This document shows, piece by piece, positions 2,172 through 28,579 of a DNA stretch of 64,000 bases. The translations under genes were made by a program, and so were the position numbers. The stretch's first letter is position 1. The number at the start of each line of letters is the position of its first letter. Under the pieces are notes generated by a model. It saw nothing but the letters and a program-made list of their open reading frames with translations, was not told the origin of the DNA and did not search any database. The DNA is from Rhodothermales bacterium (GTDB lineage: Bacteria; Bacteroidota; Rhodothermia; Rhodothermales; Bin80): NCBI GenBank assembly GCA_965220935.1, contig OZ244857.1, positions 2,440,929-2,504,928 on the forward strand, written 5' to 3'.

Positions 2172-2615
2172 TCAACGCTCAGATTCTAAGCTAACAGAAA
2201 TGCTCGTGGGATTCTTCAAGTTATCCGATACCGGGCATCTCTCTTCAACCAGATTTAACCATTTGTTTAATAGGGCAGAGTCTGCATCTGAATCAACTTC
2301 CAGTTTCACGGATATATCCTTAAATCCTGCTCTATCTGGTGAATCTCCAGTCAGAAATTTATCTGGATTAATGGTCCCTTCAACATGGATTTTGAGAGAT
2401 TTAATCTCAATCTCTAGTTCTTTGGCTATCACAAATGCCACCACATTTAAACATCCAGCCAAGGATGCCAAAGTATATTCAACTGGCATCGCACCGTGAT
2501 CCGTGCCTCCCAACGTAGGTGGTTCGTCAATCGTGATACTAAAGTTTCGAGATGATCCGACAAATTTGGTGGGACTGTAGCTTTCACCAGAATAATTGAT
2601 TTGTAAATTGCTCAT
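2172..2615 (-). CDS. OsmC/Ohr-family peroxiredoxin-like protein
   Basis: 147-aa ORF. The segments SLAGCLNV and ERCPVSDNL match the two conserved Cys-containing regions of the OsmC family, and the size is typical. Confidence 0.75.
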   Translation of the reverse strand: MSNLQINYSGESYSPTKFVGSSRNFSITIDEPPTLGGTDHGAMPVEYTLASLAGCLNVVAFVIAKELEIEIKSLKIHVEGTINPDKFLTGDSPDRAGFKDISVKLEVDSDADSALLNKWLNLVEERCPVSDNLKNPTSISVSLESER

Positions 2616-3150
2616 AAGTTATTGTATGGATTTAAGATTAAACATCATCATTCTTGGAACGAATCTCCAAAAACTCCATGCTCTACGATTTTTTTGAATT
2701 GTAGTTACATTAATATATTTTTTGAAAGTTAAACTACGTATATTCAATCACCATAGAGCTTTGACATCTTTGAATTGACGGATTCAGGCGAACAGATTTT
2801 GCTTGTAATAATACGAATTATCGGATTCTGCAACTGAATTACGATGTATGATGAAAGTTATTTTTCAAGCCTTCATGTATCCGATGGAAAATCACTGATA
2901 TCAAGTCACATTGATCATTAAATCGTGTTAAAGATACTTTTCATTACCTATTGATAACTACCTATATCCAACACTAGATGTATTGATGGTATTTAATTTG
3001 AAGAAATATATTATTTTGATTATACACTTTGATGTAACAGAGCCATCAATCTGAATTGGAAAGTACTTTGTTTGAAAATTGATAGACTAGTATCTATCAA
3101 GTCATGATATATGATCATTTGTAGATAAAACTTATCTCAGATTCCACACT

Positions 3151-6100
3151 ATGAATGTATTTGCTTTTCGGGAAAAGATAATTGCAGAATATGCCCGATT
3201 TTCTCGTAGTTTTACTAAGATTCTGTCCAAAGATATCCTTGATAAGGTCAATGAAATTTATGCTAAAGAGCATTTCTGGCCTCCTCCATTAGTTCAATTA
3301 AACCCTAACTTTGAATCAGGCGGATACATCAAACAACTGGTGAGCGATGGCCTCTTACATCCAGAATGTGATAATATTTTCCGAATCAGGAGTGAGGACG
3401 ATCTATTTGGTCAGCCGATTCGTTTGTATCACCATCAGAAAGAAGCCATCAGGATTGCAGCAAAACAGGAAAGCTATGTGCTAACAACTGGAACGGGGTC
3501 TGGCAAATCACTGGCTTACTTCATCCCGATTGTTAATGATGTGTTGCAACGAAAAGATGCAGGGAAAACTACCCACCAAATCACAGCAATTGTCGTCTAT
3601 CCGATGAATGCGCTATGCAACAGTCAACTTGAAGAACTTGAAAAATATCTTACCCTCGGCTATGGAAAAGGGCTTGAACCTGTGACATTCGCTCGCTATA
3701 CTGGTCAGGAATCTCAAGAGCAGCGGGCATCAATTGCTAAAAATCCGCCAGACATTTTATTGACAAATTATGTTATGTTGGAATTGATCATGACCCGATT
3801 TATGGAAACGGACAAGGCGATCCGTAATCATGCAGCAGGGTTACGATTTTTAGTACTTGATGAATTGCATACATACCGAGGGAGACAAGGAGGAGATGTT
3901 GCGATGTTGGTTCGCCGCGTCCGCGAGAGATTCAACGAAAATCTTATGTGCATTGGTACTTCTGCCACTATGATCTCAGAAGGTCTACATGCTGAGCGTA
4001 ATGAAGTGGTTGCAAGCATTGCCGGCCAAATTTTCGGAGTTTCTGTTAAACCTGATAATGTCATAACCGAAACATTAAAACTGGTCACACCCTCTTACCA
4101 ATCCACGTCAAATGCTGATCTCAGGGTATCTATTGAAAGAGGGATTCCTAACAATCTTAACTACGAGGAATTATCCAAGCATCCAGTGGCAAATTGGGTT
4201 GAGCACAATATGGGCATAGAAAAAATTGAGAATAAATATGCTCGAATCTTTCGTCCACTAAGTATTCATGAAGGATCCAAACGCCTCGCTAATGAAACTA
4301 ATTTGGATGTGAGCGTCTGCGAGAGATATCTAACAGATTTTCTTCTCATGTCTCATAAATGTCAGAATGAAAAAGGTCTTAGTCTCTTTGCTTTTCGGTT
4401 GCATCAATTCATTAGTAGAGCATGGAGTGTTTATACCACACTTGAACCTCCTGACACACGATATATAACCCTTGAAGGGCAGCAGTTCAAGCCTGGAAAT
4501 CGTAACCTTCCATTATATTCGCTCTGTTTCTGCAGGCAATGTGGACAAGAATATATTCCTGTATGGGCTGAGTTGGAAGGAAATGATCCTGTGTCGTTTA
4601 CCTCCAGAGACTTGAATGATCGTTTGAGTGAGGAGGAGGATCGGAAATGCGGATATCTAATGCCCGACACCTCATCATTGTTTGATTCCGTTAACATTGA
4701 AGATCAGTATCCTGAGAGCTGGGTTGAGGCACGGACAGGGCGAATTCAGCTCAAACCATCCTACAGGCGTTATGCTCCCACCAGTGTTCAAGTCAGCACA
4801 GACGGGAATGTGGTGCGACAGGGACTGCCTTCATGGTTTATCTCAGGATCATTTAGATTCTGTCTTAATCCAGAATGTGATGTTCATTATGTTGGAAATA
4901 TTCGTGAGCTTACTAAACTATCTGGACTTTCAAGTGAAGGAAGAAGTTCTGCGACGACTATACTGACGCTTTCTTCACTTAAGTATCTTATCGGGACGGA
5001 CTTGGATGACGAAACCAAGAAGATTCTTGCCTTTACTGATAACCGTCAGGATGCGAGTCTCCAGGCGGGACATTTCAATGACTTTATACAGATTCTAATG
5101 CTTAGAGGAGCATTACTCGCAGCGATCCAGAATGAGTCAGATGGAAGACTTACCGATAATTCTCTAACCCACAGGGTTCTTGATCACCTCCATTTGGATA
5201 CATTTGACTACGCTTCAAACCCCCAAGCAAAAGGGCCGCGTGCGGAAGAAACACTTGAGACACTCCGGTATATTTTAGGGTACCGGCTTTATTTTGATCT
5301 ACAGCGAGGATGGCGCATTACAAACCCAAATCTTGAACAACTGGGTTTATTAGAAATCAGATATCGAGATCTCATGGAATGTTGCCAAGATGAAGACGAA
5401 TGGCAGGCGCTCCATCCACTGATTGGCAATATGAAACCTGAATCGCGTCATGAGATTGCTCGAGAAATTCTTGATCTCATGCGAAAATCCCTCTGTATAA
5501 AAACGATTTTTTTAGACTCGGAACGACTAGAGAGAGTTGGTAACGCTAGTTATAATTTGCTCAAAGAACCTTGGGGACTATCTGAAGATGAGAAACTTCA
5601 GCCCATATCGTTTATGATCCCACGACCAAAAAGAAGGCAAGATATTAGATCTAAGAATCTGCATATCTCGCACCGCTCTGTGTTTGGAAAAAAAGTGAAA
5701 TCTAGAAATTTCTGGGGAACAGATAACCCTCACTACCCAGAAAAATTTGGAGAAGACCTCTACAACCGCATCATTGATGATGTGTTATCTGTTTTAACAA
5801 TTTATGGTTATGTAGATTCCTCAGATCTTGCTGGAAATGTCACAGGATATACTCTAAACAGTTCAGTTCTTGAATGGCATTATGTCAAAGAATTAAATGA
5901 ACCTCCATCCAACGAATTCTTCTATCAATTATATAAAAACGTGGCGAATTCTTTCAAAAATCATGACCGATTGTTTCATCAACTTGAAGCAGGTGAACAC
6001 ACTGCCCAGGTGGATTCTGAAACACGTAAGGAACGCGAATTTCGATTTCGAAAAGGGCTTGCAAGCGAGAAAGTCATTGATGGGAAATCAGAATCATCTG

Positions 6101-8391
6101 GGCTACCTGTTCTTTTCTGTTCTCCGACCATGGAGCTCGGAGTAGATATTGCCTCGCTGAATGCAGTGTACATGCGGAACGTTCCTCCTACGCCAGCCAA
6201 TTACGCACAGCGCAGTGGACGCGCTGGAAGGAGTGGTCAGCCCGCACTAGTAATTACCTACTGCGCAGCACGGTCTCCGCATGATCAATATTTTTTCTCC
6301 AATCCAACACGCATGGTCAGTGGCACTGTTACCCCTCCGAATATAGATTTAGCAAACGAAGATCTCATTCGTAGCCATTTGCAAGCAGTCTGGCTCACTG
6401 AGACAGGTATGAAACTGCCAAAGTCAGTATCCGAAATTCTTGATAGATCGGATAGTCCTGATCATCCTCTACGCGAAGAGATTGAGAAACAAATTCATTC
6501 ATCAAAGATTATATTTCGAGCGCAAACTCGTGCACATCGCATCCTTCAGACGCTGATATCTGCTCTCTCTCCTGAAGATGCTCCTTGGTATACAGATACT
6601 TGGTTGGAAAGTACTATACGAGCCGCAGAGTTACGGTTTAACGAAGCTTTTGATCGATGGCGTTCTCTCTATCGCGCAACAGTTATCCAAATGAGTTCTG
6701 CAGAAAACATCTTGAAAAATGCTGCTGCAACTGAGCAAGACCGGAGTGAGGCAAAGAAGCGACATGATCAGGCGTATACTCAACAAAATCTTCTTCTCGG
6801 AAAGAGAAACGTTACAGTTAACTCTGACTTTTATACCTACCGTTATCTGGCGTCGGAAGGTTTCTTGCCAGGCTATAATTTTCCTCGCCTACCCCTATTA
6901 GCATTTATTCCAGGCCGACGCAAAAAAGTTGGGCGAGATTCATTTTTAAGTAGACCTAGATTTCTAGGACTTTCTGAATTCGGCCCTCGATCAATCATAT
7001 ATCATGAGGGAAGCATATATCGGGTGCAACGTGCTATTTTATCACCACATGATGAGTCCGAGGTAACCATATCCTCCAAACTTCCAGTACAAACTACCAT
7101 GATCTGCAATACCTGCGGTTACGGCCATTTTGGAGATCTGAGTGACTCTGAGCGTTGCGTCAATTGCAATGAATTGCTTGGGGGAGGGCGCATGATCCGC
7201 AACCTTTATCATATTGAGCAGGTCTCTACTCAGAGAATTACACGCATTACTTCTGATGAAGAGGAGCGTAGGCGCCAAGGATACGAAATGATTACAACCC
7301 TTCAATTCAATCAGGACAATGGTCAAGCACGAAGAGAAATAATTACTATTGAGGATAATGATTCTCCTTTATTGGAACTCTGCTATGCTCCTTCTTCAAC
7401 ATTATGGCGTATTAATCTTGGATGGCACCGACGTAAAGAGAAATCTATAAACGGATTTAGTATAGATGCTAATTCTGGCGCATGGACTAAGGATTCTCAG
7501 GCTTTGACAGATGTTCAGGATGACTTAATCCAAGAGGGCAAAACGATTCAACGTATTAGTCCATTTGTGAAAGACACTCGAAATATACTGATTCTTCAAC
7601 CTCTGATTGAATTAGATGAAGTAGTTTTGGTCTCCATGCAATACGCCATCAAGCGGAGTATTGAGCATGAATTCCAACTTGAAGAGTCTGAACTTACTGC
7701 TGAACCTCTGCCCGATCGTCATCAACGTAACAATATTCTATTTTACGAATCTGCTGAGGGAGGGGCAGGGGTACTCGCCCACCTAACAGGTGATCTGGAC
7801 ACTTTTGCAAGAATAGCGAAAAGAGCGCTCAAAATCTGCCACTACAAATCTAAAACTGAAACATGGTCAGGCCTAGATGATCTTGAAAACATGGAGACAG
7901 ACTGCGAAGCTGGTTGCTATAAATGTCTGTTGAGTTACTACAATCAAATTGATCACGCACTGATTGATCGCAGAAATCAAAATCTACTTGACTTGCTTTG
8001 TAGACTGAGTGTCGCTTCCTCAAAAGCACAAACCAATATCACTAGTGCTGACAGCTATGAGGAACTTCTAAATGGTTCATCCTCCTCACTGGAAAAAGAG
8101 TGGTTGAATTTCATCCAATCAAATGGCTATCATCTTCCCGATAAATGCCAACCTTATCTGGAAGCCTATGAGACTCGTCCTGACTTCGCTTACACTAAAT
8201 ACCAAATATTGATCTATATTGATGGTCCGCATCATCAGGAAAAAACTCGTGTGGATGCAGATAAAATCATTGATCGGCGTCTTACAAATGGAGGTTATAC
8301 GGTGATCCGCTTTACTAGTAATCAAAGAGAATGGTTCAAAATTGTACATCAATATTCCTGGGTATTTGGATCAAAGCCATCTACGACATAG
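3151..8391 (+). CDS. Large DExH-box helicase fused to a DUF1998-type zinc module and a C-terminal DUF559/Vsr-like nuclease-fold domain (DrmA+DrmB-like fusion)
   Basis: 1746-aa ORF. Helicase motif I is LTTGTGSGKSLAY (~3490-3510), motif II is LVLDELHTYRG (DELH, 3859-3870), motif III is GTSAT (~aa 269), and the C-lobe carries TMELGVDI and QRSGRAGR (6208-6231, ~aa 1020), so the lobes carry long insertions. DUF1998-like features are a Cys4 ribbon MICNTCGYGHF...CVNC (from 7099), ILFYESAEGGAGVL, and CEAGCYKCLLSYYNQIDH (7903-7950). The tail (8092-8388) reads RPDFAY...ILIYIDGPHH...DADKIIDRRLTNGGYTVIRF, which resembles DUF559. Confidence 0.85.
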   Translation: MNVFAFREKIIAEYARFSRSFTKILSKDILDKVNEIYAKEHFWPPPLVQLNPNFESGGYIKQLVSDGLLHPECDNIFRIRSEDDLFGQPIRLYHHQKEAIRIAAKQESYVLTTGTGSGKSLAYFIPIVNDVLQRKDAGKTTHQITAIVVYPMNALCNSQLEELEKYLTLGYGKGLEPVTFARYTGQESQEQRASIAKNPPDILLTNYVMLELIMTRFMETDKAIRNHAAGLRFLVLDELHTYRGRQGGDVAMLVRRVRERFNENLMCIGTSATMISEGLHAERNEVVASIAGQIFGVSVKPDNVITETLKLVTPSYQSTSNADLRVSIERGIPNNLNYEELSKHPVANWVEHNMGIEKIENKYARIFRPLSIHEGSKRLANETNLDVSVCERYLTDFLLMSHKCQNEKGLSLFAFRLHQFISRAWSVYTTLEPPDTRYITLEGQQFKPGNRNLPLYSLCFCRQCGQEYIPVWAELEGNDPVSFTSRDLNDRLSEEEDRKCGYLMPDTSSLFDSVNIEDQYPESWVEARTGRIQLKPSYRRYAPTSVQVSTDGNVVRQGLPSWFISGSFRFCLNPECDVHYVGNIRELTKLSGLSSEGRSSATTILTLSSLKYLIGTDLDDETKKILAFTDNRQDASLQAGHFNDFIQILMLRGALLAAIQNESDGRLTDNSLTHRVLDHLHLDTFDYASNPQAKGPRAEETLETLRYILGYRLYFDLQRGWRITNPNLEQLGLLEIRYRDLMECCQDEDEWQALHPLIGNMKPESRHEIAREILDLMRKSLCIKTIFLDSERLERVGNASYNLLKEPWGLSEDEKLQPISFMIPRPKRRQDIRSKNLHISHRSVFGKKVKSRNFWGTDNPHYPEKFGEDLYNRIIDDVLSVLTIYGYVDSSDLAGNVTGYTLNSSVLEWHYVKELNEPPSNEFFYQLYKNVANSFKNHDRLFHQLEAGEHTAQVDSETRKEREFRFRKGLASEKVIDGKSESSGLPVLFCSPTMELGVDIASLNAVYMRNVPPTPANYAQRSGRAGRSGQPALVITYCAARSPHDQYFFSNPTRMVSGTVTPPNIDLANEDLIRSHLQAVWLTETGMKLPKSVSEILDRSDSPDHPLREEIEKQIHSSKIIFRAQTRAHRILQTLISALSPEDAPWYTDTWLESTIRAAELRFNEAFDRWRSLYRATVIQMSSAENILKNAAATEQDRSEAKKRHDQAYTQQNLLLGKRNVTVNSDFYTYRYLASEGFLPGYNFPRLPLLAFIPGRRKKVGRDSFLSRPRFLGLSEFGPRSIIYHEGSIYRVQRAILSPHDESEVTISSKLPVQTTMICNTCGYGHFGDLSDSERCVNCNELLGGGRMIRNLYHIEQVSTQRITRITSDEEERRRQGYEMITTLQFNQDNGQARREIITIEDNDSPLLELCYAPSSTLWRINLGWHRRKEKSINGFSIDANSGAWTKDSQALTDVQDDLIQEGKTIQRISPFVKDTRNILILQPLIELDEVVLVSMQYAIKRSIEHEFQLEESELTAEPLPDRHQRNNILFYESAEGGAGVLAHLTGDLDTFARIAKRALKICHYKSKTETWSGLDDLENMETDCEAGCYKCLLSYYNQIDHALIDRRNQNLLDLLCRLSVASSKAQTNITSADSYEELLNGSSSSLEKEWLNFIQSNGYHLPDKCQPYLEAYETRPDFAYTKYQILIYIDGPHHQEKTRVDADKIIDRRLTNGGYTVIRFTSNQREWFKIVHQYSWVFGSKPSTT

Positions 8392-8392
8392 C

Positions 8393-11236
8393 ATGGAGGT
8401 CGTGAACTTCAAGCCTGGAGATTTGGTGCGACTTCGCGGGCGAGAATGGGTTGTTCTTCCAGATCTTCGGGCTGATCTACTCAAAATCCGACCACTTGGT
8501 GGATCCGAGCGTGATGCAACTCTGATCTACCTGCCACTTGAGCCTGAAAAACCCGTTCATTCAACTTTTGACCTTCCCGATCCTGAACAAGTAGGTTCCA
8601 GAGATTCGGCTATGTTATTACGTGACGCTCTTCGTCTAAAACTGCGCTCTGGTGCGGGACCCTTTAGGAGTTTTGGCAATCTCAATTTTGAGCCCAGAAC
8701 CTATCAATTGGTCCCTCTATTGATGTCTCTTAAACAATCTCCCATTCGACTTCTCATCGCTGATGATGTTGGCATTGGAAAAACTATTGAAGCAGGCCTG
8801 ATCGTCAGGGAGATGTTTGACCGTGGTGAGATTGAACGATTTACGGTGATTTGCCCCCCACATTTGTGTGACCAATGGCAACGAGAGTTGGGAGAAAAAT
8901 TTCATTTTGATGCTGAGATCATCCGTACTGGAACAGCTGCTCGCCTGGAGCGAGGTTTACAACAAGATGAGTCTGTTTTTGAGGTCCATCCATTTACGGT
9001 CGTCTCTCTTGATTATATCAAATCAGATCGCAGAAGGACTGATTTCCTCCGTAGTTGCCCGAATTTCGTTATTGTTGATGAAGCTCATACCTGCGTTTCT
9101 GGAAATCCAAATACGCGTCATCAGCGCTACCAGCTCCTCAAAGGACTTTCTAGTGACACTCTGCGAAGCATCGTTCTCCTTACTGCAACCCCACATTCAG
9201 GCAATGATGTTGCATTTCATAATTTACTCTCTTTACTGAAGCCAGAGTTTGCGAAACTTGCTGAATTACCTCCGGGAGATCAACGACAATCCCTTCGTGA
9301 TAAGTTGTCCCAGCATTTTGTACAACGCCGCCGAGGTGATATTGAGGAATGGGAGGATCAGAATCAATTTCCAATCAGGGAAACCCGCGAGAGAACCTAT
9401 CAACTGACGGGAGATTGGGGAGTGTTATTTAGCGAGGTTCTCGTGTATGCTAGAACTATGGTTAAGCGTACAGAAGGAGGTACATCCCTTCAGCAGAGAA
9501 TGTCTTGGTGGGCTGCCCTTGCACTGTTGCGGTGTATTTCCTCTAGCCCTGCAGCCGCCCATATGTCACTGCGAACTCGCCTAAAAGCTACGATCGGAGA
9601 TACAGAAGATGAGCAAATAAATAATTTAGACAAGAACGTCCGTGACACAGTGATTGACGAGGCTGATAACGCTCTAACATCAACTGAAAGCATACCCGCT
9701 GGAACGGTTGAAGCACGAGAGGATTCCCGCATATTAAGCGAGCTAATTGAACGAGCGAAAGAACTACGTGGACCGACAATGGACCCTAAACTCTGTTCTC
9801 TCATCACTGAAATCAAAGCACTGATACGCGATCAATATAGGCCAGTTATTTTCTGCCGCTATATTGCGACAGCACATTATGTTGGGGAACAGTTGAAACA
9901 CGCTCTTCCCTCGCGAAGCACTCATGTCATCACTGTGACAGGAGAACTTGACCCTAATCAACGTGAAGCAGATATTGAATCGTTTCAGCATCTCTCCAGT
10001 GATATTCATCCTGTGCTAGTGGCTACGGATTGTCTTTCTGAAGGAATTAATCTTCAGAATTATTTTAACGCCATCGTTCACTATGATCTTGCGTGGAATC
10101 CAACGCGCCATGAACAGCGAGAGGGCCGTGCAGATCGGTTCGGGCAGACCTCCAAAGTAGTGCGTACGCTCCTGCTCTATGGAGAAAACAATCCCATTGA
10201 CGGTGCAATTATTCGTGTAATACTTAATAAGGCCGAACAGATCCGAAAAGAACTTGGCGTTCATGTTCCTTCACCCGTTGAAAATGACAAGCTTCTGGAG
10301 ACTATAATGATGGCTGCCCTTCTTCAAAGCGATGCATCTACTGCTCTGCCAGATCTTGACTTTGGAAATACTGAGGATGAGGTGGACATTGCCTGGGAAA
10401 GGGTTAAGCAAAAAATTTCCCGAACTGTATTTGCTCAACGTACCTTGAGACCTGATGATGTTATACCAGAATGGGAAAAGACCGTCTCCGTGTTAGGAGG
10501 ATCTCATGATGCAGAACGCTTCGTTCGTTCCGCTACAAATCGTCTCGGAGCCCCGCTCAATGCAGAAAAAGACTACTTTCAATTTCCCGTGAAGCATTTA
10601 CCAAAACAGCTCCAGGATCAATTAGGAGATATAGGATTCAAGGAAACGACGAAAATTACATTCTCCCAGCCACCACCGATGGGTGTAAACTATGTGCACA
10701 GAACTCATCCGATCATTTCAACGCTTGCGGATTATGTAGCAGAGCTCTCATTAGATAATAAGTGTGATATAGGTGCGAGATGTAGCGCTATGTTTACCAG
10801 AGATGTGACAGAGCGGACTGTTCTTTATCTACTCAGACTCCGTTTTCAACTTCATGTTGAGCAACGAAACAGCGACGGGAAATTCATCCCACTTAAATCC
10901 TTGCTTGCTGAAGAGTGTACAGGGGTTGCAATCCGCGGAATTGACTCGCCCGAAATCCTGACAGATCATGATGCTTTTGATCTTCTTTCTGCTGAACCAT
11001 CAAGCAACATGGATACAGGTCAGAAAACATTCATGATCAGACAAGTTTTGGGAGAACTTGATACCGTTGAGAGTATTTTTATCCGCATCGCTAACCAACA
11101 ATCTGAACAGCTTCTTAAAGATCACCGCAGGATTCGTGATGCCAGCGATATGAGAGGGTTAAGATATAATGTAGAACCCTGCCTACCGGTTGATAAGATT
11201 GGGATATATGTTTTTATGCCCTCTGTAAAGTTGTGA
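8393..11236 (+). CDS. SNF2-family helicase (DrmD-like)
   Basis: I place the start at ATG 8393 (MEVVNFKPGD...), 1 nt after the upstream stop (8389-8391). The track's 8342 start would overlap the helicase gene. Motifs seen are LLIADDVGIGKTIEAG (8762-8785), VIVDEAHTC (DEAH, 9076-9087), LLTATPHSG, VLVATDCLSEGINLQ and HYDLAWNPTRHEQREGRADRFGQ. Confidence 0.85.
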   Translation: MEVVNFKPGDLVRLRGREWVVLPDLRADLLKIRPLGGSERDATLIYLPLEPEKPVHSTFDLPDPEQVGSRDSAMLLRDALRLKLRSGAGPFRSFGNLNFEPRTYQLVPLLMSLKQSPIRLLIADDVGIGKTIEAGLIVREMFDRGEIERFTVICPPHLCDQWQRELGEKFHFDAEIIRTGTAARLERGLQQDESVFEVHPFTVVSLDYIKSDRRRTDFLRSCPNFVIVDEAHTCVSGNPNTRHQRYQLLKGLSSDTLRSIVLLTATPHSGNDVAFHNLLSLLKPEFAKLAELPPGDQRQSLRDKLSQHFVQRRRGDIEEWEDQNQFPIRETRERTYQLTGDWGVLFSEVLVYARTMVKRTEGGTSLQQRMSWWAALALLRCISSSPAAAHMSLRTRLKATIGDTEDEQINNLDKNVRDTVIDEADNALTSTESIPAGTVEAREDSRILSELIERAKELRGPTMDPKLCSLITEIKALIRDQYRPVIFCRYIATAHYVGEQLKHALPSRSTHVITVTGELDPNQREADIESFQHLSSDIHPVLVATDCLSEGINLQNYFNAIVHYDLAWNPTRHEQREGRADRFGQTSKVVRTLLLYGENNPIDGAIIRVILNKAEQIRKELGVHVPSPVENDKLLETIMMAALLQSDASTALPDLDFGNTEDEVDIAWERVKQKISRTVFAQRTLRPDDVIPEWEKTVSVLGGSHDAERFVRSATNRLGAPLNAEKDYFQFPVKHLPKQLQDQLGDIGFKETTKITFSQPPPMGVNYVHRTHPIISTLADYVAELSLDNKCDIGARCSAMFTRDVTERTVLYLLRLRFQLHVEQRNSDGKFIPLKSLLAEECTGVAIRGIDSPEILTDHDAFDLLSAEPSSNMDTGQKTFMIRQVLGELDTVESIFIRIANQQSEQLLKDHRRIRDASDMRGLRYNVEPCLPVDKIGIYVFMPSVKL

Positions 11237-11237
11237 T

Positions 11238-14200
11238 ATGGAAAAAATCAGAACTAACGATGTATTCACAGCCTTGAGGATTGAGGGTGGTATTTTACCT
11301 CCAGAATATCTCCAAAGGATCGCACAGCTTAATGCGTCTAATCAATCAGATCAAGATTATGATCTTTCTGAATCACTCATTCTTAAAGAAGAGATTGGTC
11401 GTTATTGGAAAATTGCTACTGACCTTTACGAGCGCTATAATCGATTGCGAGTGCGCCGAAGTACCAGACAGGAATCATCCGTAGTAGAAGATTGGTGTGT
11501 TCCTTTTATTCGGAATATTCTAGGATACGAAAATCTGATTTCAACGAGTGATGTTGAAATTAATGATCGTTTTTTCAAGTTAACTCATGTTACGCATAAT
11601 GGTGCTGTGCCTATTCTTTTGGTATCCCAGGACTCTCTGGACAAATCGTTTCCCGAACTTGGCTATGATGGCCGTAGGCAGGCAGCTCATGGCATTATGC
11701 AGGAATATTTGAATACTGAAGATGCTGCACTTTGGGGAATTATTTCTAATGGATCAAAGCTCCGAATCCTGCGCGATAATGTGAGCCTTACACGTCCTGC
11801 ATTCATAGAGGCCGACCTTGATCTCATTCTCTCAGAAGGACTTTACTCAGAATTTTCTGCCCTCTGGCTTGTAACTCATTCCACACGCCTCCGCCCAATT
11901 GATGATAAACCATCCCTCTGTATAATTGAAACTTGGCGCACAGAAGCTCAAGAAACAGGTCAACGTATCCGAGAAAACTTACGTGTAGGTGTCAGCGAAT
12001 CTCTTCGAAAACTTGGAAGTGGTTTTCTGCGTCATCACAAAAACGATCATCTCAGACAGGCACTTCGGAACGGTGAATTAACTCCAGAGGAGTATTTCCA
12101 GCAACTCCTTCAACTCATTTATCGGCTTCTTTTTCTTTTCACAGCTGAAGATCGTAACCTGCTACACACACCAGAGTCCACGAAAGAACAACGTGGAATC
12201 TACATAGATGGTTACTCTCTAGATCAGATACGCAACCGTACTCTTCGTGGCCGTCATTATGATCAATATGAGGACCTATGGAGGGGACTTCAAGTCACCT
12301 TCCATGCACTTGCACGAGGTTGCTCGGGCCTCGGACTTCCTGCTCTAGGAGGACTTTTTCAAAAGGCCAATGCATTTGATATTGAGCGCTCGGAAATTTC
12401 GAACGCTGATCTGCTTAAGGCCATTAAAAACATCTCTTTCTTTCAATCTAAGCGAAGTCTAACGCGAATCAATTACAGAGATATGGGCACAGAAGAGTTA
12501 GGATCTGTCTATGAAAGTCTATTGGAGCTTCAACCGTTTATTGACGTTGAAAACTGGGTTTTTGGCCTTGTTGGTGATGGGCCTGAAAAAGTCAAAGGAT
12601 CAAAACGAAAGCTCACTGGATCTTATTATACTCCCCCGTCACTTGTGAGCGAATTGATCAAGTCAGCATTGGAACCCGTTATTAAGCAGACTGTGGAAGA
12701 TAATCCAGAGGACCCTCGTGGTGCGATTCTTAAACTGAATATCCTTGATCCTTCGTGCGGTTCCGGGCATTTTCTTTTGGCGGCCGCCCATCGACTTACA
12801 TCCGAGATCGCTTATATAGATCATGGAACAATCTCACCTGATGAAACCACTAGACAGCACATTTTGCGGGAAGTTGTGCAGCATTGCATTTATGGGGTAG
12901 ACATCAATCCTCTTGCTGTTGAACTCTGCAAGACTGCTTTATGGATTGAGACCGTGGAGCCTGGAAAGCCCCTCACCTTTCTTGACTCCCACATTATTCA
13001 GGGAGACAGTCTGGTTGGGATTTTTGATCCATCAATTATGGAAAATGGAATTCCTAATAAGGCATATAATGCTCTAACCGATGACATTAAAGATGTTTGT
13101 CAAAACCTCAAAAAGCGAAATAATGAACCACATTTACCTAGTTTATTTGATGAGGATGCGGCCCTAGAAGTTGCCGTGACGACTATTGACTTAGATTCAA
13201 TGCCAGAGGATACTTTGGGAGATATTGAGCGTAAGTCTGCAGCATGGCAGGATATGCAGCTTGGAGACAGGTGGACGAATGAAAAGTTACGAGCCAATCT
13301 ATTTGTGGGAGCTTTTTTTGCTCCGAAAACATCTGAAACGATTAATCTTGTTCCTCTTTCAAATGATCTCGCTTCACTAGATGGTGACAGTAGTTCTCGG
13401 CGTCCGGGTGTTGATGAATTTATAAATAATTTGGCATTAAAACATTCGTTCCTTCACTGGCATCTTGCCTTTGCAGAGATCATGCAAGATGGTGGATTTA
13501 ACTGTGTCCTTGGAAATCCACCTTGGGAGCGAATTAAGCTACAGGAAAAAGAGTTCTTTTCTACACGATCAGAAGAAATTGCGAATGCTCCAAACAAGGC
13601 AAGTAGAGCTCAACTTATTAAAAAACTAAACAGTGAAGATGCCTCAGTTGCTGAAAAAGCCTTGTTTACTGAATTTCGGAGTGCAAAGCATAGATCTGAT
13701 GCCGTGAGTTTGTTTGCCCGAACAGGAGGACGTTTCCCATTGAGTGGAATTGGAGATCTGAATACTTATCCTCTATTTTCTGAGCTCTTTCTACAACTCG
13801 TCCATCCGCAGGGGCGAGCGGGTTTGATTGTTCCTACAGGTATTGCCACAGATGATACTACAAAAAAATTCTTTAACCATTTGGTTATCAATCACAGGCT
13901 CGTGAGTTTGTTTGACTTTCAAAACAGAGCTGGCATTTTCCCCGACGTTACAGGTTTAATGAGATTTTCTCTCTTAACCTTTAATGGAAATACAAATTCT
14001 GATTCTAAACCAGAATTTGCATTTTTTCTTCATCAAACGGAAAATTTAAAAGAAAAAGAACGACGAATTCAGCTATCAATAGATGATTTTCAGTTATTCA
14101 ATCCGAACACGCTGAACTGCCCCATCTTTCGCACTAATCATGACGTTAACATTGCGCGCAAGATGTTTAAGCGGGGTATCCTGTGGAAGGAAGCAATAGG

Positions 14201-15491
14201 AACTGAACCAGAGAAGAATCCCTGGGGGATCAGATTTATGAGTATGTTTCACATGTCCAATGATTCACATCTATTTAGAACCAGTGATGACTTGCTGGAT
14301 GAGGGGTGGGTGCTACACGGAAACATCTTCATGCGTGATAATGAACGATATTTGCCATTATATGAAGCGAAAATGCTTCACCAGTATGATCATCGTTTTG
14401 CCATGTTTGAAAAAACGGGAGGGGGCAAACCCAAAACTCGAGATCTCACCGTGGAAGAAAAAACAAACCATCATGCGGTTGCCCTACCAAGATACTGGAT
14501 TCCTGCTGCGGAAGTGGAACAAAAGCTTCTGGCGCAATTAAAAGGTCAGTCAGTCAGTCAGTCAGTCAGTCAGTCAGTCAGTCAGTCAGTCAGTCAGTCA
14601 GTCAGTCAGTCAGTCAGTCAGTCATGGACAAACTCAAACGGCTGGCGCGCTACTCGCTCTCAGGGATATCGGAAGTGCAACCAATCAACGAACGACAATA
14701 CTCTCCATGATTGCACCCGTAGGTCTAGGAGATACAGTGTCGGTGATCACCATTGGCTCATGGTTTTCAGAGATATTGCTGGAGCAACCGGTCGGAGAAC
14801 TTGCATCCATACAATTATGCCCTCCATGGGAATGAATCATCATGTTCCGTCTATGAGTATTGATTCCACAAACTGGCTTCAAGCGTTCCGAGATATTGGG
14901 AGGACGGGAGACAACCGTACCCTTATATCAAGTAATTTACCACAAAGTGGGATTGGGAATTCTGCTCCTATCATCAATTATGACCATGCACGAGCCGTGG
15001 CCTCTGCACTTATTCTGGCAAATATGAATAGCATTCCCCTAGACTGGGCAGCTCGCCTTTCAGTTGGCGGAACACATATGAGCTTTTTCATTGTGAAACA
15101 ACTCCCAGTCTTACCCCCTGATGTATTTCTGGAGATGAGTAGATGCAATTGCACATGGGTGCAATTAATTATTCCCCGCGTCTTAGAACTGACCTACACA
15201 TCACATGAAATGACTCCTTTCGCCAGAGATCTAGGATTTGAAGGTCCCCCCTTCACATGGGACGATGAGAAACGTCATTGCCTCAAATCTGAACTTGACG
15301 CAATTATTGCTCATATGTATGAACTTGACCGATCTGACCTTGAATGGATTATTGATCCGCCCCCACCAAGCTCATCTTTCCCAGTTCTTAAATCTCATGA
15401 AATTAAAGAATTCGGAGAGTATCGTACCAAACGCTATGTTCTAAAAGCTTACGATCAAATTCAACGCGGAGAGATACCTAATCTTCCCTAA
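11238..15491 (+). CDS. Large gamma-class N6-adenine DNA methyltransferase (Eco57I-like / DrmMI-like) containing an internal tetranucleotide repeat
   Basis: 1417-aa ORF starting 1 nt after the SNF2 stop. It carries GSYYTPPSLV, motif I ILDPSCGSGHFLLAA (~12741-12785) and motif IV GNPPWERIK (13512-13538). The order I then IV indicates gamma class. C-terminal blocks are LHQYDHRF, RDI..RT modules, GGTHMSFFIVKQLPVLPP, RVLELTYTSHEM and GEYRTKRYVL. The frame is maintained through the (GTCA)20 tract at 14545-14624. Confidence 0.85.
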   Translation: MEKIRTNDVFTALRIEGGILPPEYLQRIAQLNASNQSDQDYDLSESLILKEEIGRYWKIATDLYERYNRLRVRRSTRQESSVVEDWCVPFIRNILGYENLISTSDVEINDRFFKLTHVTHNGAVPILLVSQDSLDKSFPELGYDGRRQAAHGIMQEYLNTEDAALWGIISNGSKLRILRDNVSLTRPAFIEADLDLILSEGLYSEFSALWLVTHSTRLRPIDDKPSLCIIETWRTEAQETGQRIRENLRVGVSESLRKLGSGFLRHHKNDHLRQALRNGELTPEEYFQQLLQLIYRLLFLFTAEDRNLLHTPESTKEQRGIYIDGYSLDQIRNRTLRGRHYDQYEDLWRGLQVTFHALARGCSGLGLPALGGLFQKANAFDIERSEISNADLLKAIKNISFFQSKRSLTRINYRDMGTEELGSVYESLLELQPFIDVENWVFGLVGDGPEKVKGSKRKLTGSYYTPPSLVSELIKSALEPVIKQTVEDNPEDPRGAILKLNILDPSCGSGHFLLAAAHRLTSEIAYIDHGTISPDETTRQHILREVVQHCIYGVDINPLAVELCKTALWIETVEPGKPLTFLDSHIIQGDSLVGIFDPSIMENGIPNKAYNALTDDIKDVCQNLKKRNNEPHLPSLFDEDAALEVAVTTIDLDSMPEDTLGDIERKSAAWQDMQLGDRWTNEKLRANLFVGAFFAPKTSETINLVPLSNDLASLDGDSSSRRPGVDEFINNLALKHSFLHWHLAFAEIMQDGGFNCVLGNPPWERIKLQEKEFFSTRSEEIANAPNKASRAQLIKKLNSEDASVAEKALFTEFRSAKHRSDAVSLFARTGGRFPLSGIGDLNTYPLFSELFLQLVHPQGRAGLIVPTGIATDDTTKKFFNHLVINHRLVSLFDFQNRAGIFPDVTGLMRFSLLTFNGNTNSDSKPEFAFFLHQTENLKEKERRIQLSIDDFQLFNPNTLNCPIFRTNHDVNIARKMFKRGILWKEAIGTEPEKNPWGIRFMSMFHMSNDSHLFRTSDDLLDEGWVLHGNIFMRDNERYLPLYEAKMLHQYDHRFAMFEKTGGGKPKTRDLTVEEKTNHHAVALPRYWIPAAEVEQKLLAQLKGQSVSQSVSQSVSQSVSQSVSQSVSQSWTNSNGWRATRSQGYRKCNQSTNDNTLHDCTRRSRRYSVGDHHWLMVFRDIAGATGRRTCIHTIMPSMGMNHHVPSMSIDSTNWLQAFRDIGRTGDNRTLISSNLPQSGIGNSAPIINYDHARAVASALILANMNSIPLDWAARLSVGGTHMSFFIVKQLPVLPPDVFLEMSRCNCTWVQLIIPRVLELTYTSHEMTPFARDLGFEGPPFTWDDEKRHCLKSELDAIIAHMYELDRSDLEWIIDPPPPSSSFPVLKSHEIKEFGEYRTKRYVLKAYDQIQRGEIPNLP
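14545..14624 (+). repeat. Perfect tetranucleotide simple-sequence repeat (GTCA)x20 (equivalently an AGTC tract) inside the methyltransferase ORF
   Basis: Counted base by base: g14545 through a14624 is 80 nt, or 20 units with no interruption. It translates as G(QSVS)x6QS. The tract has no stop codon in any forward frame. Confidence 0.97.
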
Positions 15492-15794
15492 CCGAATTGT
15501 CATATTTATTGACAGTGTAAAGACTCCCAAACACCAATAAATGATTTACACTTTCAATTGAAGACTTTGACACCATAAGTGAGGAGATGATTCTGCTTAA
15601 TCACTAATTGAAGAGTTAAAGAATCCATCCATTCACACCCTGATTTTGCTATTCTTGTGAGGCTAGTTTCATTATCACAACCCTACCTATTGGCCAAAAA
15701 AATATTCGCACAATGTGCTCCTTAAGATTCATGAACACCTAACTGCCCATTACATTTATGATTACGACGTACTCATTTATCCGTAAATCAGTTC

Positions 15795-18539
15795 ATGCAC
15801 CATTTCGAAATGCCCATGAATCTAGGTAAGAAAAACACCGTTGTGGTTCTTGACCGCCACAGCTACATCACTCAACGTCTTAATTTTGCCCGTGAACATG
15901 CTCATGGAACCCAGATCATGATGATGAGTGACCTGGCCATCAGACTTGCGGGTGGATTCATTAAAACCGTTGACATTTCGTTTCTTCGGGCCACCATTCA
16001 TGAAACGATTCTTGATACAGATCTTGGAAGCTTAAATGTTATCAAAGATCTTCCAGGATTTGTGGCAGCAGCTACAAATACGCTTAACAAGGCCTGGCTC
16101 AGCGGCTATGATCTGAACCAATCACACCCTCGTGTGAAAGAGATTGCTCGTCTAAATGCTGCTGTGACCAAACGATTGCCACCTTCAATGCTACCACCTG
16201 CATCTCTCATTGCTGAAGCCTATAAGAACATTGCCCATGCACCTACAATTTTAGGTAGCATCAGATTCATGGGAATGACAGAACTCCACCCGTGCTGGTG
16301 GCCCCTGATTGAGCAATTGTGCGATCATGTACCTGTCACTTGGGTTGCAGGACCTCGACATATTCCTATGCACCTACCTAAGGGATGTGAACTGAAAACC
16401 GAATCTAAACAATGTCCACAAATCAAAACAATAAGCTGCTCAACCCCCTATCATGAAGCTATTGAAGCGATGCGATGGGCACGCCAACTAGTGACCCAAC
16501 AGGGAGTTCTTCCTCAAGATATCGCCATTGCTACAACGGATACAAAAATATACGATGACTTCTTTTTGGCATTACGGGAGGAATCTGACCTCCCCCTCTA
16601 TTTTGCGCATGGAATCAATGTCACCCAACCCGCCCATGGCCAATCAATTCTGGCACTAGCAGATCTTCTACTTCGTGGACTCTCCTCTGACCGGATTCAT
16701 CGACTGAGCTCTCATAAACAATTCTTAACCGATAAGATCAAAAACCTGAGAGATGCATGGTGGACGTTCACTATTAAAAATCATGACATCAATCTTCTCT
16801 CCCCAGATGAGTTAAAGATCAGGGCTCAAAAGTTAATTGCCGAAGAGAGGAAATCTGATTACTTACCGCTGGCAAACCTCCTCACAGAGATCAACAAGAA
16901 TACCAAATTCAGATTGGATCAAAACCCCGTCATGAGCTTGGAAGATCATATTGCAATGAAGCAGTCATGGCTTAAAACTGGAGAAAAACTCCTTTCAGGC
17001 GCAGCGCTTAAACTATGGAAAAATCTCCTCAAAGTTGCACCTGCTGCTTCACTTGAACAAGAAGCCCCTAGAATGTCAGTCCCTGAGCCTCCAGAATTCT
17101 GTGAACGCGTCGCATGGATGCCCGCTCAATCCCTTGCCGCTTCCCCACGCAAACACGCCCGACTTCTTGGGCTTAATTCATACCATTGGCCCCGAGAAAA
17201 CATCAAGGATTTACTATTGACCGGGCCTGGATTAGAAAATGCAAGTGAATCCTTAGATCCGCTGCCAGTAGCGGATGCCGATCAACGCGATTTTTCTACA
17301 ATCTGTAACACAACCTCTGAATCGGTCATTTGCTCTTTTTCTAGATACGATGCCGATGGAAAAGTGCTCGGACGTAGCCACCTGCTTACACCTGACATCT
17401 ACCATCCCACTTTAAAGTTATTTCGCAACTCTAGTCCTCCACATGCAATGAGCGAATCTGACTATCTGCTCGCTTCGCCCGATAAATTCAAACAGAATGA
17501 TCATGCGATCAGAGCGCTCCAATGTTGGACAAATTGGAACACATGTCACATTACCGAACACGACGGGTTGATCAAAGAAAATCACCCCCTGATTCGCCAT
17601 GTCCTCAAAAAACCCGCATCGGCCACTTCACTGACGCGCATGTTACGAGCCCCACTCGGATATATTTGGTATTATGGCTTGCATTGGCGAGGAGTGACTA
17701 CTCAGTCGGACCGCCTAACTTTAAGCCCTCTTAACTTCGGAATCTTGGTTCACCGTGCATTACAATCCATCCTTCAAACTCTTGAGTTCATCCGAAAAAA
17801 TTCTGAAGCAACCCCTATAAGTGATTCCATTATATCCTCGCTTGAATCTACATTTGAGATATGGGAATCTCTATATGGAACGCCACCAAAATTGCTGTGG
17901 GAAGAGACAAAAAAACAGATACAATCTATCACAACAACGGTGTTCAATGACTATCCATCAACAGAGAGTACATTATCGTTTTCTGAGGTTCCATTTGGGG
18001 GTAATAAATCAGAGATGAACCAAGATTCTCCGTGGGATTCAGACCGCCCCGTCACTCTTCCAGGAACAGACTTAAAAATTACTGGCTTCATAGACCGTAT
18101 TGACATTGATTACAATGACCTTCAAGCGCGTCTTACTGATTACAAAACAGGAAAACCAACGAAGAAGTCTGGGTTAAGAGGTGGACTTGAACTCCAAAGA
18201 TGCATTTACTATGTCGCTGCAAATTCACTATTACAGTCAGAGTTGGACATTTCTACCAGCCTCCTATATCTCCAGAATGGAGATCAGCTTACACTGCCCG
18301 AACCCCAACAAGAATTCATCAATGATCTATCAAAAAATGTAAATGAAGCCATTAAGAATTTCAACCAAGGTCATGTTTTCTTTGGGGCAAGCCCCAAACA
18401 AAAACATGATTTGGGTATCTATCGTGATCTGAAACTTGCTCTACCAGCCGATCTCCTTAGAGATTATGTTTCCAGAAAAGAGAAAGCACAAAACCAGAGA
18501 TTGGGACCTACGCTCCAAGAATTTTGGGAATCAGACTAA
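15795..18539 (+). CDS. AddB/RexB-like PD-(D/E)XK nuclease subunit (no Walker A, no Fe-S cysteine cluster)
   Basis: 914-aa ORF. The C-terminal RecB-family nuclease motifs are ITGFIDRIDIDYNDLQARLTDYKTGK and LELQRCIYYVAA (QxxxY). There is no GxxxxGK[ST] at the N-terminus, and only one Cys lies in the last 150 aa. It overlaps the next gene through a TAATG junction. Confidence 0.7.
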   Translation: MHHFEMPMNLGKKNTVVVLDRHSYITQRLNFAREHAHGTQIMMMSDLAIRLAGGFIKTVDISFLRATIHETILDTDLGSLNVIKDLPGFVAAATNTLNKAWLSGYDLNQSHPRVKEIARLNAAVTKRLPPSMLPPASLIAEAYKNIAHAPTILGSIRFMGMTELHPCWWPLIEQLCDHVPVTWVAGPRHIPMHLPKGCELKTESKQCPQIKTISCSTPYHEAIEAMRWARQLVTQQGVLPQDIAIATTDTKIYDDFFLALREESDLPLYFAHGINVTQPAHGQSILALADLLLRGLSSDRIHRLSSHKQFLTDKIKNLRDAWWTFTIKNHDINLLSPDELKIRAQKLIAEERKSDYLPLANLLTEINKNTKFRLDQNPVMSLEDHIAMKQSWLKTGEKLLSGAALKLWKNLLKVAPAASLEQEAPRMSVPEPPEFCERVAWMPAQSLAASPRKHARLLGLNSYHWPRENIKDLLLTGPGLENASESLDPLPVADADQRDFSTICNTTSESVICSFSRYDADGKVLGRSHLLTPDIYHPTLKLFRNSSPPHAMSESDYLLASPDKFKQNDHAIRALQCWTNWNTCHITEHDGLIKENHPLIRHVLKKPASATSLTRMLRAPLGYIWYYGLHWRGVTTQSDRLTLSPLNFGILVHRALQSILQTLEFIRKNSEATPISDSIISSLESTFEIWESLYGTPPKLLWEETKKQIQSITTTVFNDYPSTESTLSFSEVPFGGNKSEMNQDSPWDSDRPVTLPGTDLKITGFIDRIDIDYNDLQARLTDYKTGKPTKKSGLRGGLELQRCIYYVAANSLLQSELDISTSLLYLQNGDQLTLPEPQQEFINDLSKNVNEAIKNFNQGHVFFGASPKQKHDLGIYRDLKLALPADLLRDYVSRKEKAQNQRLGPTLQEFWESD

Positions 18540-21500: not shown

Positions 21501-21820
21501 AAGAGATAAGTTTTCGCATCCAGAGAACGTTGGATCTACCACCGATTAGCCATCTCTTGGGTTCCTTAGTCCCTGAATGTCCAGTATATAATGTTGTCTC
21601 AGATACAGAAAAAGAATCTGTTATCACTGGCATTGCTGATGCAATCAGCTTTTCATCAGATGGTTCTCCACAATTGATTATTGACTGGAAAAGTGGGAGG
21701 GCGACATCCCACCATCAGCAGCAAATCGGAGCTTACATGAATGCAGCCGGCATTTCCAAAGGCCTCTTAGTTTACATTGACAGCGGTCAAATCAAAGAAG
21801 TCAATGTATCCATACGATAA
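18539..21820 (+). CDS. AddA/UvrD-family helicase with C-terminal PD-(D/E)XK nuclease domain
   Basis: I place the start at ATG 18539, overlapping the upstream TAA (18537-18539); the track starts at TTG 18524. UvrD motifs seen are VEAGAGTGKTT, VAVTFTEAAASEL, TIHGFC, LVDEFQDTD, GDPNQSIYRFRGA, TIHNAKGLEWPVV and LWYVAATRAR. The C-terminal nuclease signature is GIADAISF...QLIIDWKSG...QQIGAY. Confidence 0.8.
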   Translation: MPKQNTSLADSQSRNRALTAIDESLVVEAGAGTGKTTILAGRIAVMLTLGKPPQHIVAVTFTEAAASELLLRVREYVHLLQTGQFPPGLKAALDGELTPKQKKNLEKAEDNLDALTCSTIHGFCQRVLKTFPVEANIDPGATVMDEMQSKGVFHEVMHGWLRQILSDDDGYLVAQILTRNNLDHLQKITNCVRIHRQAIAKPMHQLDERLIEFRDSLQQYVDNISNMEESVPSAKAIAKIFIQWIEMSKITPESSVSEIIACIDFAAKNELVTQENSRTTVTTYYNRSTASDWNKALSGTKKSINEARKRATDLYNHVRDLWNKSIRHELSSVLLGQLLVDLKGLLKRYQQYKRSAGLLDFDDLIIGVLELLRHPDHGHDVRQALAKQYRYILVDEFQDTDAQQAEIFWSLSSSDHHDDWTKLKPRAGSLFIVGDPNQSIYRFRGANVDIYSKARKTFPSNNVLSIVTNFRSTAPVLEFINDRFTQPLSDGYTHLIPFNQETNDSPSVASIGFNPNDATNSKFHETEAVAVAQVCHELITSHYQASDIALLTPTGTEIHYYEQALQNLGIQFEAQAGKNFFLLQEIQDLVALTLILADGNNSLALGAFLRGPLVGITDQELLDLAWKLPRNPDRPDETASLNAWIDVNVIKHEIISDVIIKLQSLLKIAHRCTPYLLLASAVDCFHIRAHLRLRYGDQAPRALSNVDLFLEKARAYNIRGLRDFASSIYQKWGDETPTPEAKPDISQDAVTISTIHNAKGLEWPVVIPINTWKSPRPADNIIVDRLTSEIYASIFSIQTSGFDEIKAHENEQLRDERIRLWYVAATRARNLLLLTAPTNLDPTATDKSWRAIVDLRTDDLPYFTSKRIPKKDNEVLPEKVKVQTYEDFIAEGDQIKQVSNRLRWISPSKDEVPPIDLETTIIDDEDHSIETADIQGKGFIRGLVIHRLIEEIITGETHREDLSCRAQQLSDQIHTSFEIHPPVVMDTEEISFRIQRTLDLPPISHLLGSLVPECPVYNVVSDTEKESVITGIADAISFSSDGSPQLIIDWKSGRATSHHQQQIGAYMNAAGISKGLLVYIDSGQIKEVNVSIR

Positions 21821-23558: not shown

Positions 23559-23652
23559 ATGGATCTCTCCAGACGTTGCCAGCAAGAACGACAAAAACCC
23601 ATAGGTTCTGTCGTTTCTGTTTCTCTTTTTACTCTTTAATCTACCCAATTTA

Positions 23653-25026: not shown

Positions 25027-25041
25027 TTTTCGGACAACCCC

Positions 25042-25987: not shown

Positions 25988-26056
25988 GGTATTTCAGGAT
26001 TGATTAAATGCACGCAAACGCTGGAAATTTGATCTCGGTTGATCATGTCGTAGCAT

Positions 26057-27262: not shown

Positions 27263-27340
27263 AATATTTTTGGGTTGATTTAATGATTAGATACACGCAA
27301 AACGCTGGAAATTTCATCTCGGTTGATCATGTCGTAGCAT

Positions 27341-28555: not shown

Positions 28556-28579
28556 AATATTTTTGGGTTGATTTAATGG

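Follow-up and report, generated by a model that had tools for sequence, protein, structure and literature searches.

The 64,000-nucleotide stretch analysed here (Rhodothermales bacterium, assembly GCA_965220935.1, contig OZ244857.1, positions 2,440,929 to 2,504,928; hereafter the window) carries at 3151-15491 an operon of three open reading frames (ORFs) for a DExH helicase, an SNF2 helicase and an N6-adenine DNA methylase. With high probability, this operon is a Type I member of ARMADA (short for disARM-related Antiviral Defense Array), a group of defence systems named by Bell et al. (bioRxiv 2025, PMC12458937), in which the 3' end of the methylase gene is under the control of a hypermutable repeat. 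Judged from its relatives, the third ORF is a predicted frame-dependent fusion, which recreates an ancestral single-chain architecture from a methylase body and a C-terminal module that are parted by a perfect (GTCA) tract. The operon itself is of a known kind; a conserved three-state contingency switch at its end appears to be unreported. A wider proposal, put forward tentatively and in our estimate slightly more likely wrong than right, is that a sub-clade of ARMADA Type I in several environmental phyla possesses a dedicated three-state switch (a renewed repeat, a length-tolerant linker and a dual-coding spacer), that its split and fused states are two functional forms with different properties, and that it is the first contingency locus to be described in the DISARM/ARMADA/Druantia group. 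Both the tetranucleotide tract and the composite make-up of the third ORF had escaped an earlier note on this DNA, which described the operon as a variant of DISARM.

The repeat tract and its reading-frame states

The features of the operon are collected in Table 1. The tract is located in a variable linker, about 25 codons past the conserved PRYW motif of the methylase. For comparison, the genome neighbourhoods L001 and L003-L005 and 80 metagenome loci were used. At the same site, the 98%-identical locus L003 has (GTCA)25 and is in another frame, with flanks that are 98.4% identical and no other insertion or deletion nearby; the downstream frame therefore differs between the two on account of 20 versus 25 copies, and it is the frame set by (GTCA)20 that yields the fused ORF of the window. 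Two hallmarks of contingency loci, a perfect non-triplet repeat within an ORF and a copy-number difference between close genomes, are present. That the tract is an artefact was considered and rejected, as independent assemblies (the window, L003 and others) hold perfect tracts of different length or unit at the same site.

Table 1. Coordinates of the operon and of the elements at the 3' end of its methylase gene, numbered from the first letter of the window.
Feature	Position	Strand	Remarks
AT-rich leader 5' of the operon	2616-3150		535 bp; presumed promoter region
Gene 1	3151-8391	+	ORF of 1746 amino acids (aa)
MZB/DUF1998 zinc-binding domain, gene 1 residues 1497-1593	7639-7929	+	PF09369, 40.5 bits, cut-off 24.2
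Vsr/DUF559-type PD-(D/E)XK nuclease domain (predicted), gene 1 residues ~1645-1739	8083-8367	+	Pfam DUF559
Gene 2	8393-11236	+	947 aa counted from ATG
Gene 3	11238-15491	+	ORF of 1417 aa
Gene 3 body, residues 1-1102	11238-14544	+	PglX-like gamma-class N6-adenine DNA methylase (ArmB-like); ends at the repeat
Perfect (GTCA)20 tract	14545-14624	+	Tandem Repeats Finder: period 4, 20.0 copies, 100% match; contingency site setting the downstream frame
Spacer segment 1	14643-14744	+	methylase tail motif …ALRDIGSATNQRTTILSMIAPVGLG…; frame A (+1); read in the window as out-of-frame linker
TGA, frame C stop	14708-14710	+	homologous early stops in L005, L012 and L013
Spacer segment 2	14751-14831	+	second motif copy WLMVFRDIAGATGRRTCIHTI…; frame B (fusion frame), translated in the present state of the window
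C-terminal module, 219 aa	14832-15491	+	third motif copy and helical domain; last codons 14832-15488; fused to the methylase in the window
ATGA overlap	14832-14835	+	module-gene ATG over frame-A methylase TGA; translational-coupling junction in the split state; same +1 overlap in L003, L007 and L011

The copy number n selects one of three states. With n mod 3 = 1 (state A, split), a methylase of about 1200 aa with a conserved tail ends in a stop that overlaps the start of a separate module gene of about 220 aa. With n mod 3 = 2 (state B, fused, as in the window), the tract is followed by a non-conserved out-of-frame linker of 43 codons, the second motif copy WLMVFRDIAGATGRRT and the module. 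With n mod 3 = 0 (state C, truncated), a stop is reached 27 codons past the tract. Simulated tracts of 17 to 27 copies cycle through B, C and A with ORFs of 1413-1425, 1154-1166 and 1197-1205 aa (about 1417, 1158 and 1201 aa), respectively, and these sizes match the three length groups of 120 database methylases.

The module is a stand-alone gene in L003, L004 and L005 (97%, 76% and 61% identity), where it follows a methylase of about 1180-1214 aa. A search with the module found 1320 homologues, of which the top 120 are nearly all 218-231 aa long, with a few longer products of 244-362 aa, and the mean column identity is 73%. The compact three-gene layout described in the earlier note is present in the window, but it is the state of this copy, as the last 219 codons form a gene of their own in most relatives. 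In distant ARMADA loci, the module is the C-terminus of one long methylase ORF. The module gave no match to a Pfam family even at E<1, nothing below E=4 was found with Foldseek against the PDB, and its AlphaFold2 (AF2) model is confident for residues 100-219 only. The motif that recurs here (W-L-x-x-F-R-D-I…T-N-x-R-T) is triplicated; unsplit relatives have a single copy, which stands after a linker varying from about 20 to about 120 aa, and they have no tract. From these relatives it follows that the tract sits in a region tolerant of length changes, and that the motif was triplicated in a derived sub-clade.

Tracts at the same site recur widely in this sub-clade. L004 has (CAAC)37, L005 nine copies of a 14-nucleotide (nt) unit, and the L001 contig ends in (GAAC)n; altogether, 12 DNA loci carry perfect non-triplet tracts there, built from GTCA, CAAC, GACC, GAAC, GCCGA, CCGAC, GGACA, a 7-mer, a 10-mer or a 14-mer. 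In the metagenome set, close relatives with upstream sequence present (module identity of at least about 55%) all have a perfect tract, which precedes the small gene by 210-230 nt, whereas the distant ones (module identity of at most 47%) all have one long methylase ORF without a tract. Tract-bearing lineages include Rhodothermales-like bacteria, Gammaproteobacteria, Gemmatimonadota and Caldilineaceae.

At the protein level, 120 methylase clusters (56-80% identity) were surveyed, 114 of them with the PRYW anchor. A perfect peptide repeat is found in 73 of these 114, with a period of 5 (55 clusters), 7, 4, 8, 2 or 14, none of them a multiple of three. All but one of 72 peptide repeats can be encoded exactly by a unit of p nucleotides read three times, p being the peptide period, a property of 17 in 20000 random pentapeptides (0.085%). 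Distinct repeat units number 29. State A was assigned to 35 clusters, state B to 31 and state C to 40.

Several irregular loci were recorded alongside. Contigs end or start, or scaffolds have N-gaps, at the tract in L001 (21854-21873), L011 (1-54), L086 (~2100-2230), L087 and L088, and the database methylases P0338, P0357 and P0359 end within the repeat; the tract is a systematic breakpoint of assembly and annotation. L012 (1-10654) has helicases and a methylase body about 40% identical to those of the window, a module with 61% identity and a (CCGAC)6 tract, a pattern that suggests exchange of a repeat-plus-module cassette between ARMADA lineages. In L008 (631-1535), about 580 nt are inserted between methylase tail and small gene, and the rearranged spacer of L009/L010 (9600-10001) lets the body frame run through a motif resembling segment 2 to a stop that lies 89 nt short of the small gene.

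Coding constraint on the spacer

Between tract and module lies a spacer of 207 nt in the window and 207-231 nt across seven aligned loci. Codon-position entropy along this alignment changes frame: in segment 1 the most variable positions are the wobble positions of frame A (permutation p=5e-5), in segment 2 those of frame B (p=1.5e-4, with p=0.40 for frame A), significances that are inflated by the phylogenetic non-independence of the seven related loci. The switch occurs about 75 nt before the start of the small gene. The fusion frame is free of stops across the spacer of about 70 codons in eight of eight non-fused loci, while windows of equal length in the -1 frame of the methylase body are open in 0-5% of cases in four AT-richer lineages. 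These patterns argue that segment 1, specific to the split state, and segment 2, specific to the fused state, are both under purifying selection, and that selection probably maintains both products.

The strongest competing explanation assigns no function to the arrangement: the 3' end of the methylase would be dispensable or decaying, the tract either a neutral insert prone to slippage or a product of misassembly, and the frames random. Agreeing with it, the three states make up about one third each, also with short repeats or none, the truncated state is the commonest, some lineages have lost the tract, and repeats of this kind are hard to assemble. It has difficulty, though, with perfect tracts kept at one site in 73 of the 114 clusters, with 29 different units and no triplet period among them, which implies repeated renewal of the repeat and selection for frame-shifting units. 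Equally hard to reconcile with it are the high conservation of the module, the frame-specific purifying selection in segments 1 and 2, a fusion frame that is open where chance would close it, the conserved ATGA coupling junction, and the perfect tracts of unequal length in the independent assemblies of the window and L003. We regard this explanation as improbable.

Distinctly less probable still is that only the split state functions and the fusion is accidental, the frame-B constraint arising from a small gene that starts upstream of segment 2 or from ribosomes that shift from frame A to frame B. The predominance of stand-alone products of about 220 aa in the module search, a few of them called longer, fits such a reading. 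In 9 loci, however, none of ATG, GTG and TTG occurs as a conserved in-frame start upstream of segment 2, the start at W+26/27 being universal, and the aligned loci, by inspection only, showed no slippery heptamer conserved at the transition from A to B; segment 2 would therefore be translatable in the fused state only. Neither an upstream start nor a slippery site was retained as an explanation of segment 2, and fused methylases account for 31 of the 114 clusters.

Class of the operon

In ARMADA Type I, a YprA-like helicase gene is followed by those of a BrxHII-like SNF2 helicase and a PglX-like methylase; the YprA homologue ends in a predicted active Vsr-type PD-(D/E)xK nuclease, and there is no phospholipase D (PLD) gene (PMC12458937). 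The window operon has a DruE-like fused helicase with a C-terminal Vsr-type domain, next to an SNF2 helicase and a methylase in this order, and we assign it to Type I on its architecture and gene order. The ORFs and their 1-nt gaps agree with the earlier note in their coordinates and in both junction sequences (TAG-C-ATG and TGA-T-ATG), and every domain that it had named (DExH helicase, DUF1998, DUF559, SNF2 and N6-methylase) scores above the Pfam curated cut-offs.

Gene 1 encodes an ArmC-like protein, a DExH helicase of the YprA/DruE-like kind to which OB-CON-DUF1998 is fused and which is predicted to end in a Vsr-type nuclease. Besides MZB/DUF1998, Pfam places DEAD at residues 94-275, Helicase_C at 950-1029 and DUF559 at 1678-1725, all above curated cut-offs; DEAD and Helicase_C are separated by an insert of about 650 residues with a CxxC at 461. 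DELH stands at residue 237, CxxC occurs four times, and in the MZB domain 119 homologues conserve C1585, C1589 and C1592 to at least 95%. Its relatives comprise more than 120 cluster representatives at full length with at least 62% identity, from several phyla. The best PADLOC profiles are DruE1/DruE3 (316 bits, 1.6e-94), against DrmA with 49 bits (6e-14) in a match confined to the helicase C-domain; NCBIfam DISARM_DrmA scores 18 bits with a cut-off of 950. The nearest solved structures in a PDB search were 9tu7 (2.5e-42), 9wae and YprA/MrfA (6znp, 1.6e-19), the first two being helicases of about 2000 aa that score above 6znp and are of a size that fits DruE.

In the tail of gene 1, DUF559 scores 24 bits in the whole protein and, with the tail taken by itself, 28 bits (E=2e-6); the cut-off is 20.6. 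At least 95% conserved in the 119 homologues are T1675-R-P-D1678-F, D1691-G-P-x-H1695, D1704, R1710 and R1720-F, among which D1678, D1691, H1695 and D1704 are candidate catalytic residues. The AF2 model has a pLDDT of 76-94 across the tail, and its sole meaningful fold match is the catalytic domain of I-Bth0305I (3r3p; probability 0.92, TM score 0.61, E=0.35), a nuclease domain that we take to be Vsr-like.

Gene 2 is by its profile matches a BrxHII/RapA-like SNF2 helicase (ArmA-like), with SNF2-rel_dom and Helicase_C in Pfam. Among PADLOC models, 'DpdE' PDLC02853 matches it end to end (1.9e-196, 653 bits), followed by DrmD (1.4e-82) and BrxHII (1.8e-48); in NCBIfam, DISARM_DrmD scores 322 bits with a cut-off of 610, RapA matches at 1e-34, and the Dpd models stay below their cut-offs (DpdE 183 bits versus 500, DpdJ 77 versus 800). 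No deazaguanine genes of Dpd (DpdA/DpdB transglycosylase, preQ0) were found among the window ORFs scanned. PDLC02853 fits gene 2 far better than does any DrmD model; it probably represents ARMADA SNF2 helicases, and its use could lead to their being misannotated as Dpd. In the body of gene 3, Pfam places Eco57I, N6_Mtase and MmeI_Mtase between about 455 and 775, a region that includes DPSCGSG (504) and NPPW (760). Gene 3 matches PADLOC DrmMI (1.5e-66) as well as PglX and Type IIG enzyme models. A PDB sequence search with the methylase returned a CamA-like catalytic core only, and Pfam gave gene 3 no nuclease domain.

The triad recurs as a unit, in about 60 related loci. The neighbourhoods L003-L005 (98%, 73% and 63% identity) have the same genes in the same order as the window, and where the flank is long enough, nearly every locus (about 40 of the 80 from metagenomes, together with L001 and L003-L005) has gene 1, gene 2 and the methylase beside the module by tblastn; the neighbourhood survey proposed in the earlier note accordingly shows the layout to recur. 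Related loci show two gene orders, both described in PMC12458937. The operon had no match in a collection of E. coli genomes.

In the earlier note, the operon was taken for a streamlined or rewired variant of class 1 DISARM: DrmA and DrmB would be joined in one protein, and a PD-(D/E)XK tail may have replaced the PLD nuclease DrmC. Part of this stands. Like class 1 DISARM (drmD, drmMI, drmA, drmB, drmC), the operon places an SNF2 helicase and an Eco57I-like N6-adenine methylase beside a DUF1998-containing helicase, presumably for methylation-based discrimination of self and non-self, and the PADLOC models of DrmD and DrmMI match genes 2 and 3; the presence of DUF1998 and the absence of PLD also suit the DISARM reading. 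PLD is indeed lacking: no PLDc domain was found by Pfam in the 22 large ORFs of the window, and HxKxxxxD does not occur in any six-frame, stop-to-stop ORF of at least 100 aa in the window. A putative Vsr/DUF559 nuclease domain does end gene 1, in the place that the note had given to a PD-(D/E)XK tail, and would serve as the nuclease. The fusion of DrmA and DrmB is contradicted by the profile scores of gene 1, which favour DruE over DrmA by a wide margin and lie far under the NCBIfam DrmA cut-off. Gene 2 likewise stays under the DrmD cut-off in NCBIfam while matching strongly in PADLOC, and both DrmD and DrmMI are by definition proteins common to DISARM and ARMADA. The DISARM core of drmA, drmB and drmC is wanting: DUF1998 lies within gene 1, and neither a separate DrmB, a PLD DrmC nor the N-terminal EVE-like and trigger-loop elements of DrmA were found here. 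Fused helicase-OB-CON-DUF1998 is the usual form among YprA-family proteins, DISARM being the lineage in which it is split, and the published YprA phylogeny sets the ARMADA architecture in its own clade beside Druantia, with the fused form ancestral (PMC12458937). We consider a DISARM assignment very unlikely, a little more so than the upstream-start or frameshift explanation; the layout is already catalogued, as the note had allowed, not as a DISARM subtype but as ARMADA Type I.

Least likely of all is a chance neighbourhood of two systems, a Druantia type III-like helicase beside an unrelated Type IIG/BREX-like methylase-helicase pair, as DruE models top the PADLOC matches of gene 1 and gene 3 matches Type IIG models, but no Druantia partner (DruA-D, DruM/F/G, DruH) was matched by PADLOC among the five proteins scanned, the DruE of Druantia type III (DruH-DruE) has PLD-like domains where gene 1 has a Vsr-type tail with SNF2 and methylase partners, 1-nt gaps join the genes, gene 3 has no detected nuclease domain, and the triad stays together in essentially every related locus with enough flank, at 36-98% identity and in two conserved orders.

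Several points weigh against the interpretation as an ARMADA Type I operon with a switch. Switching is read from comparison between genomes and not from reads within a population. The states are also equally frequent at fewer than three repeat copies (16/13/17 for A, B and C), as expected if they are nearly neutral, and some close relatives retain no more than (GACC)3.8 or lack the tract. The selection test draws on 7 loci of shared descent. As to class, the structural backing of the Vsr fold has a weak E-value, BrxA-like, zinc-module and MarR-like inserts were not detected in gene 1 by Pfam even at E<1, and the experiments on ARMADA cover Type II only.

Surroundings, proposed mechanism and related systems

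The leader, given as about 530 bp in the earlier note, has a guanine-plus-cytosine (GC) content of 29%; the operon has 43% and the whole window 45%. Scans of 2500-16000 for promoter and terminator consensus sequences stayed at or below shuffle expectation; these used the sigma-70 consensus, and the host may use another promoter type. Relative to the window, L003 has two insertions in the leader region of about 1.3 and 2.1 kb (L003 5670-7012 and 7852-9953; window 2267 and 3112), the larger of which bears a 432-aa gene on the minus strand. Directly 3' of the operon, at 15795-21820, lies a pair of AddB-like (PDDEXK_1) and AddA-like (UvrD helicase, C-terminal nuclease) genes. As part of the system this pair was rejected: apart from the window, only the same-species relative L003 has it adjacent, the other ARMADA loci do not, and it therefore belongs to the repair machinery of the host. 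The GC skew goes sharply negative from about 15000. Further downstream, four tandem paralogous AAA_16 ATPase genes (322, 401, 404 and 446 aa) adjoin two Mutator/IS256-family transposase ORFs (25019-29920, minus strand, and 22533-25026, plus strand), and a (C)12 homopolymer at 31800-31811 lies 28 nt 5' of a GTG start (31839). The protein that starts there has 1844 aa and about 14 fibronectin type III repeats, and its gene may be a second one under slippage control in the genome.

By analogy with the genetics of ARMADA Type II, with BREX/Pgl and with DISARM, the methylase would mark host DNA and also be needed for defence, and the helicases would engage unmodified invader DNA for degradation by the Vsr nuclease of gene 1. 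Because the methylase would be needed for defence, slippage in the tract could reversibly alter or silence the whole system without self-restriction and give rise to mixed populations (bet-hedging). Populations with ARMADA Type I are probably mixtures of defence states. If the wider proposal is true, split and fused forms might differ as methylation-only and defence-competent, for example, or in the coupling of module and helicases, which would go beyond an on/off pair. Natural split, fused and truncated alleles offer a way to address the role in defence of the C-terminal module of PglX-like methylases. Contingency loci are usually ascribed to host-adapted pathogens, and here dozens of free-living lineages keep the site while the unit turns over. 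In practice, what gene callers and defence-finders make of one and the same system will depend on copy number: three genes, four genes or a 'truncated methylase'.

The text of the ARMADA paper (PMC12458937) makes no mention of a tandem repeat, frameshift, phase variation or separate gene for a C-terminal module, and in the literature no link of ARMADA, DISARM or YprA systems to phase variation was found, subscription journals being thinly covered such that an earlier report is possible. With published ARMADA Type I, the operon shares the gene order, a helicase closest to DruE, the fused OB-CON-DUF1998, the Vsr-type tail and the lack of both a PLD and a GajB-RelE gene; it differs in that the methylase of the window sub-clade is split or fused by a non-triplet repeat. 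With Type II (E. coli ArmA-D), for which all genes and the NPPW motif of the methylase are required and protection is direct and non-abortive (PMC12458937, PMC13463889), it has three protein families in common, but its order starts with YprA and a GajB-RelE gene is missing; the UvrD-family gene downstream has its helicase domain from residue 18, a C-terminal PD-(D/E)XK domain and an AddB-like partner, and is without RelE. As a further example of a system described in 2025, the operon supports the published view of ARMADA as a link between DISARM and Druantia.

For the tract, the nearest precedents are pglX and the phasevarions. In Streptomyces Pgl, a G-tract in pglX switches at 1e-2 to 1e-4 (Sumby and Smith 2003, cited in PMC4365076), and the window resembles this Pgl/BREX case in having a slippage-prone tract in the gene of a PglX-family defence methylase. 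The pglX tract is a homopolymer with an on/off outcome, whereas here units of 2 to 14 nt occupy a fixed 3'-proximal linker site across phyla, with three outcomes and a dual-coding spacer. Phasevarions are driven by repeats in Type III mod, Type I hsdM/hsdS and Type IIG methylase genes (PMC5909438, PMC7383803, PMC4889913); with them the window shares tetra- or pentanucleotide repeats within methylase ORFs, slipped-strand mispairing and an AGTC-type unit. Phasevarions are found mainly in host-adapted pathogens and leave a methylase that is either expressed or truncated, whereas in these environmental bacteria the tract parts the enzyme body from a C-terminal module, and alternative complete architectures result from two of the three frames.

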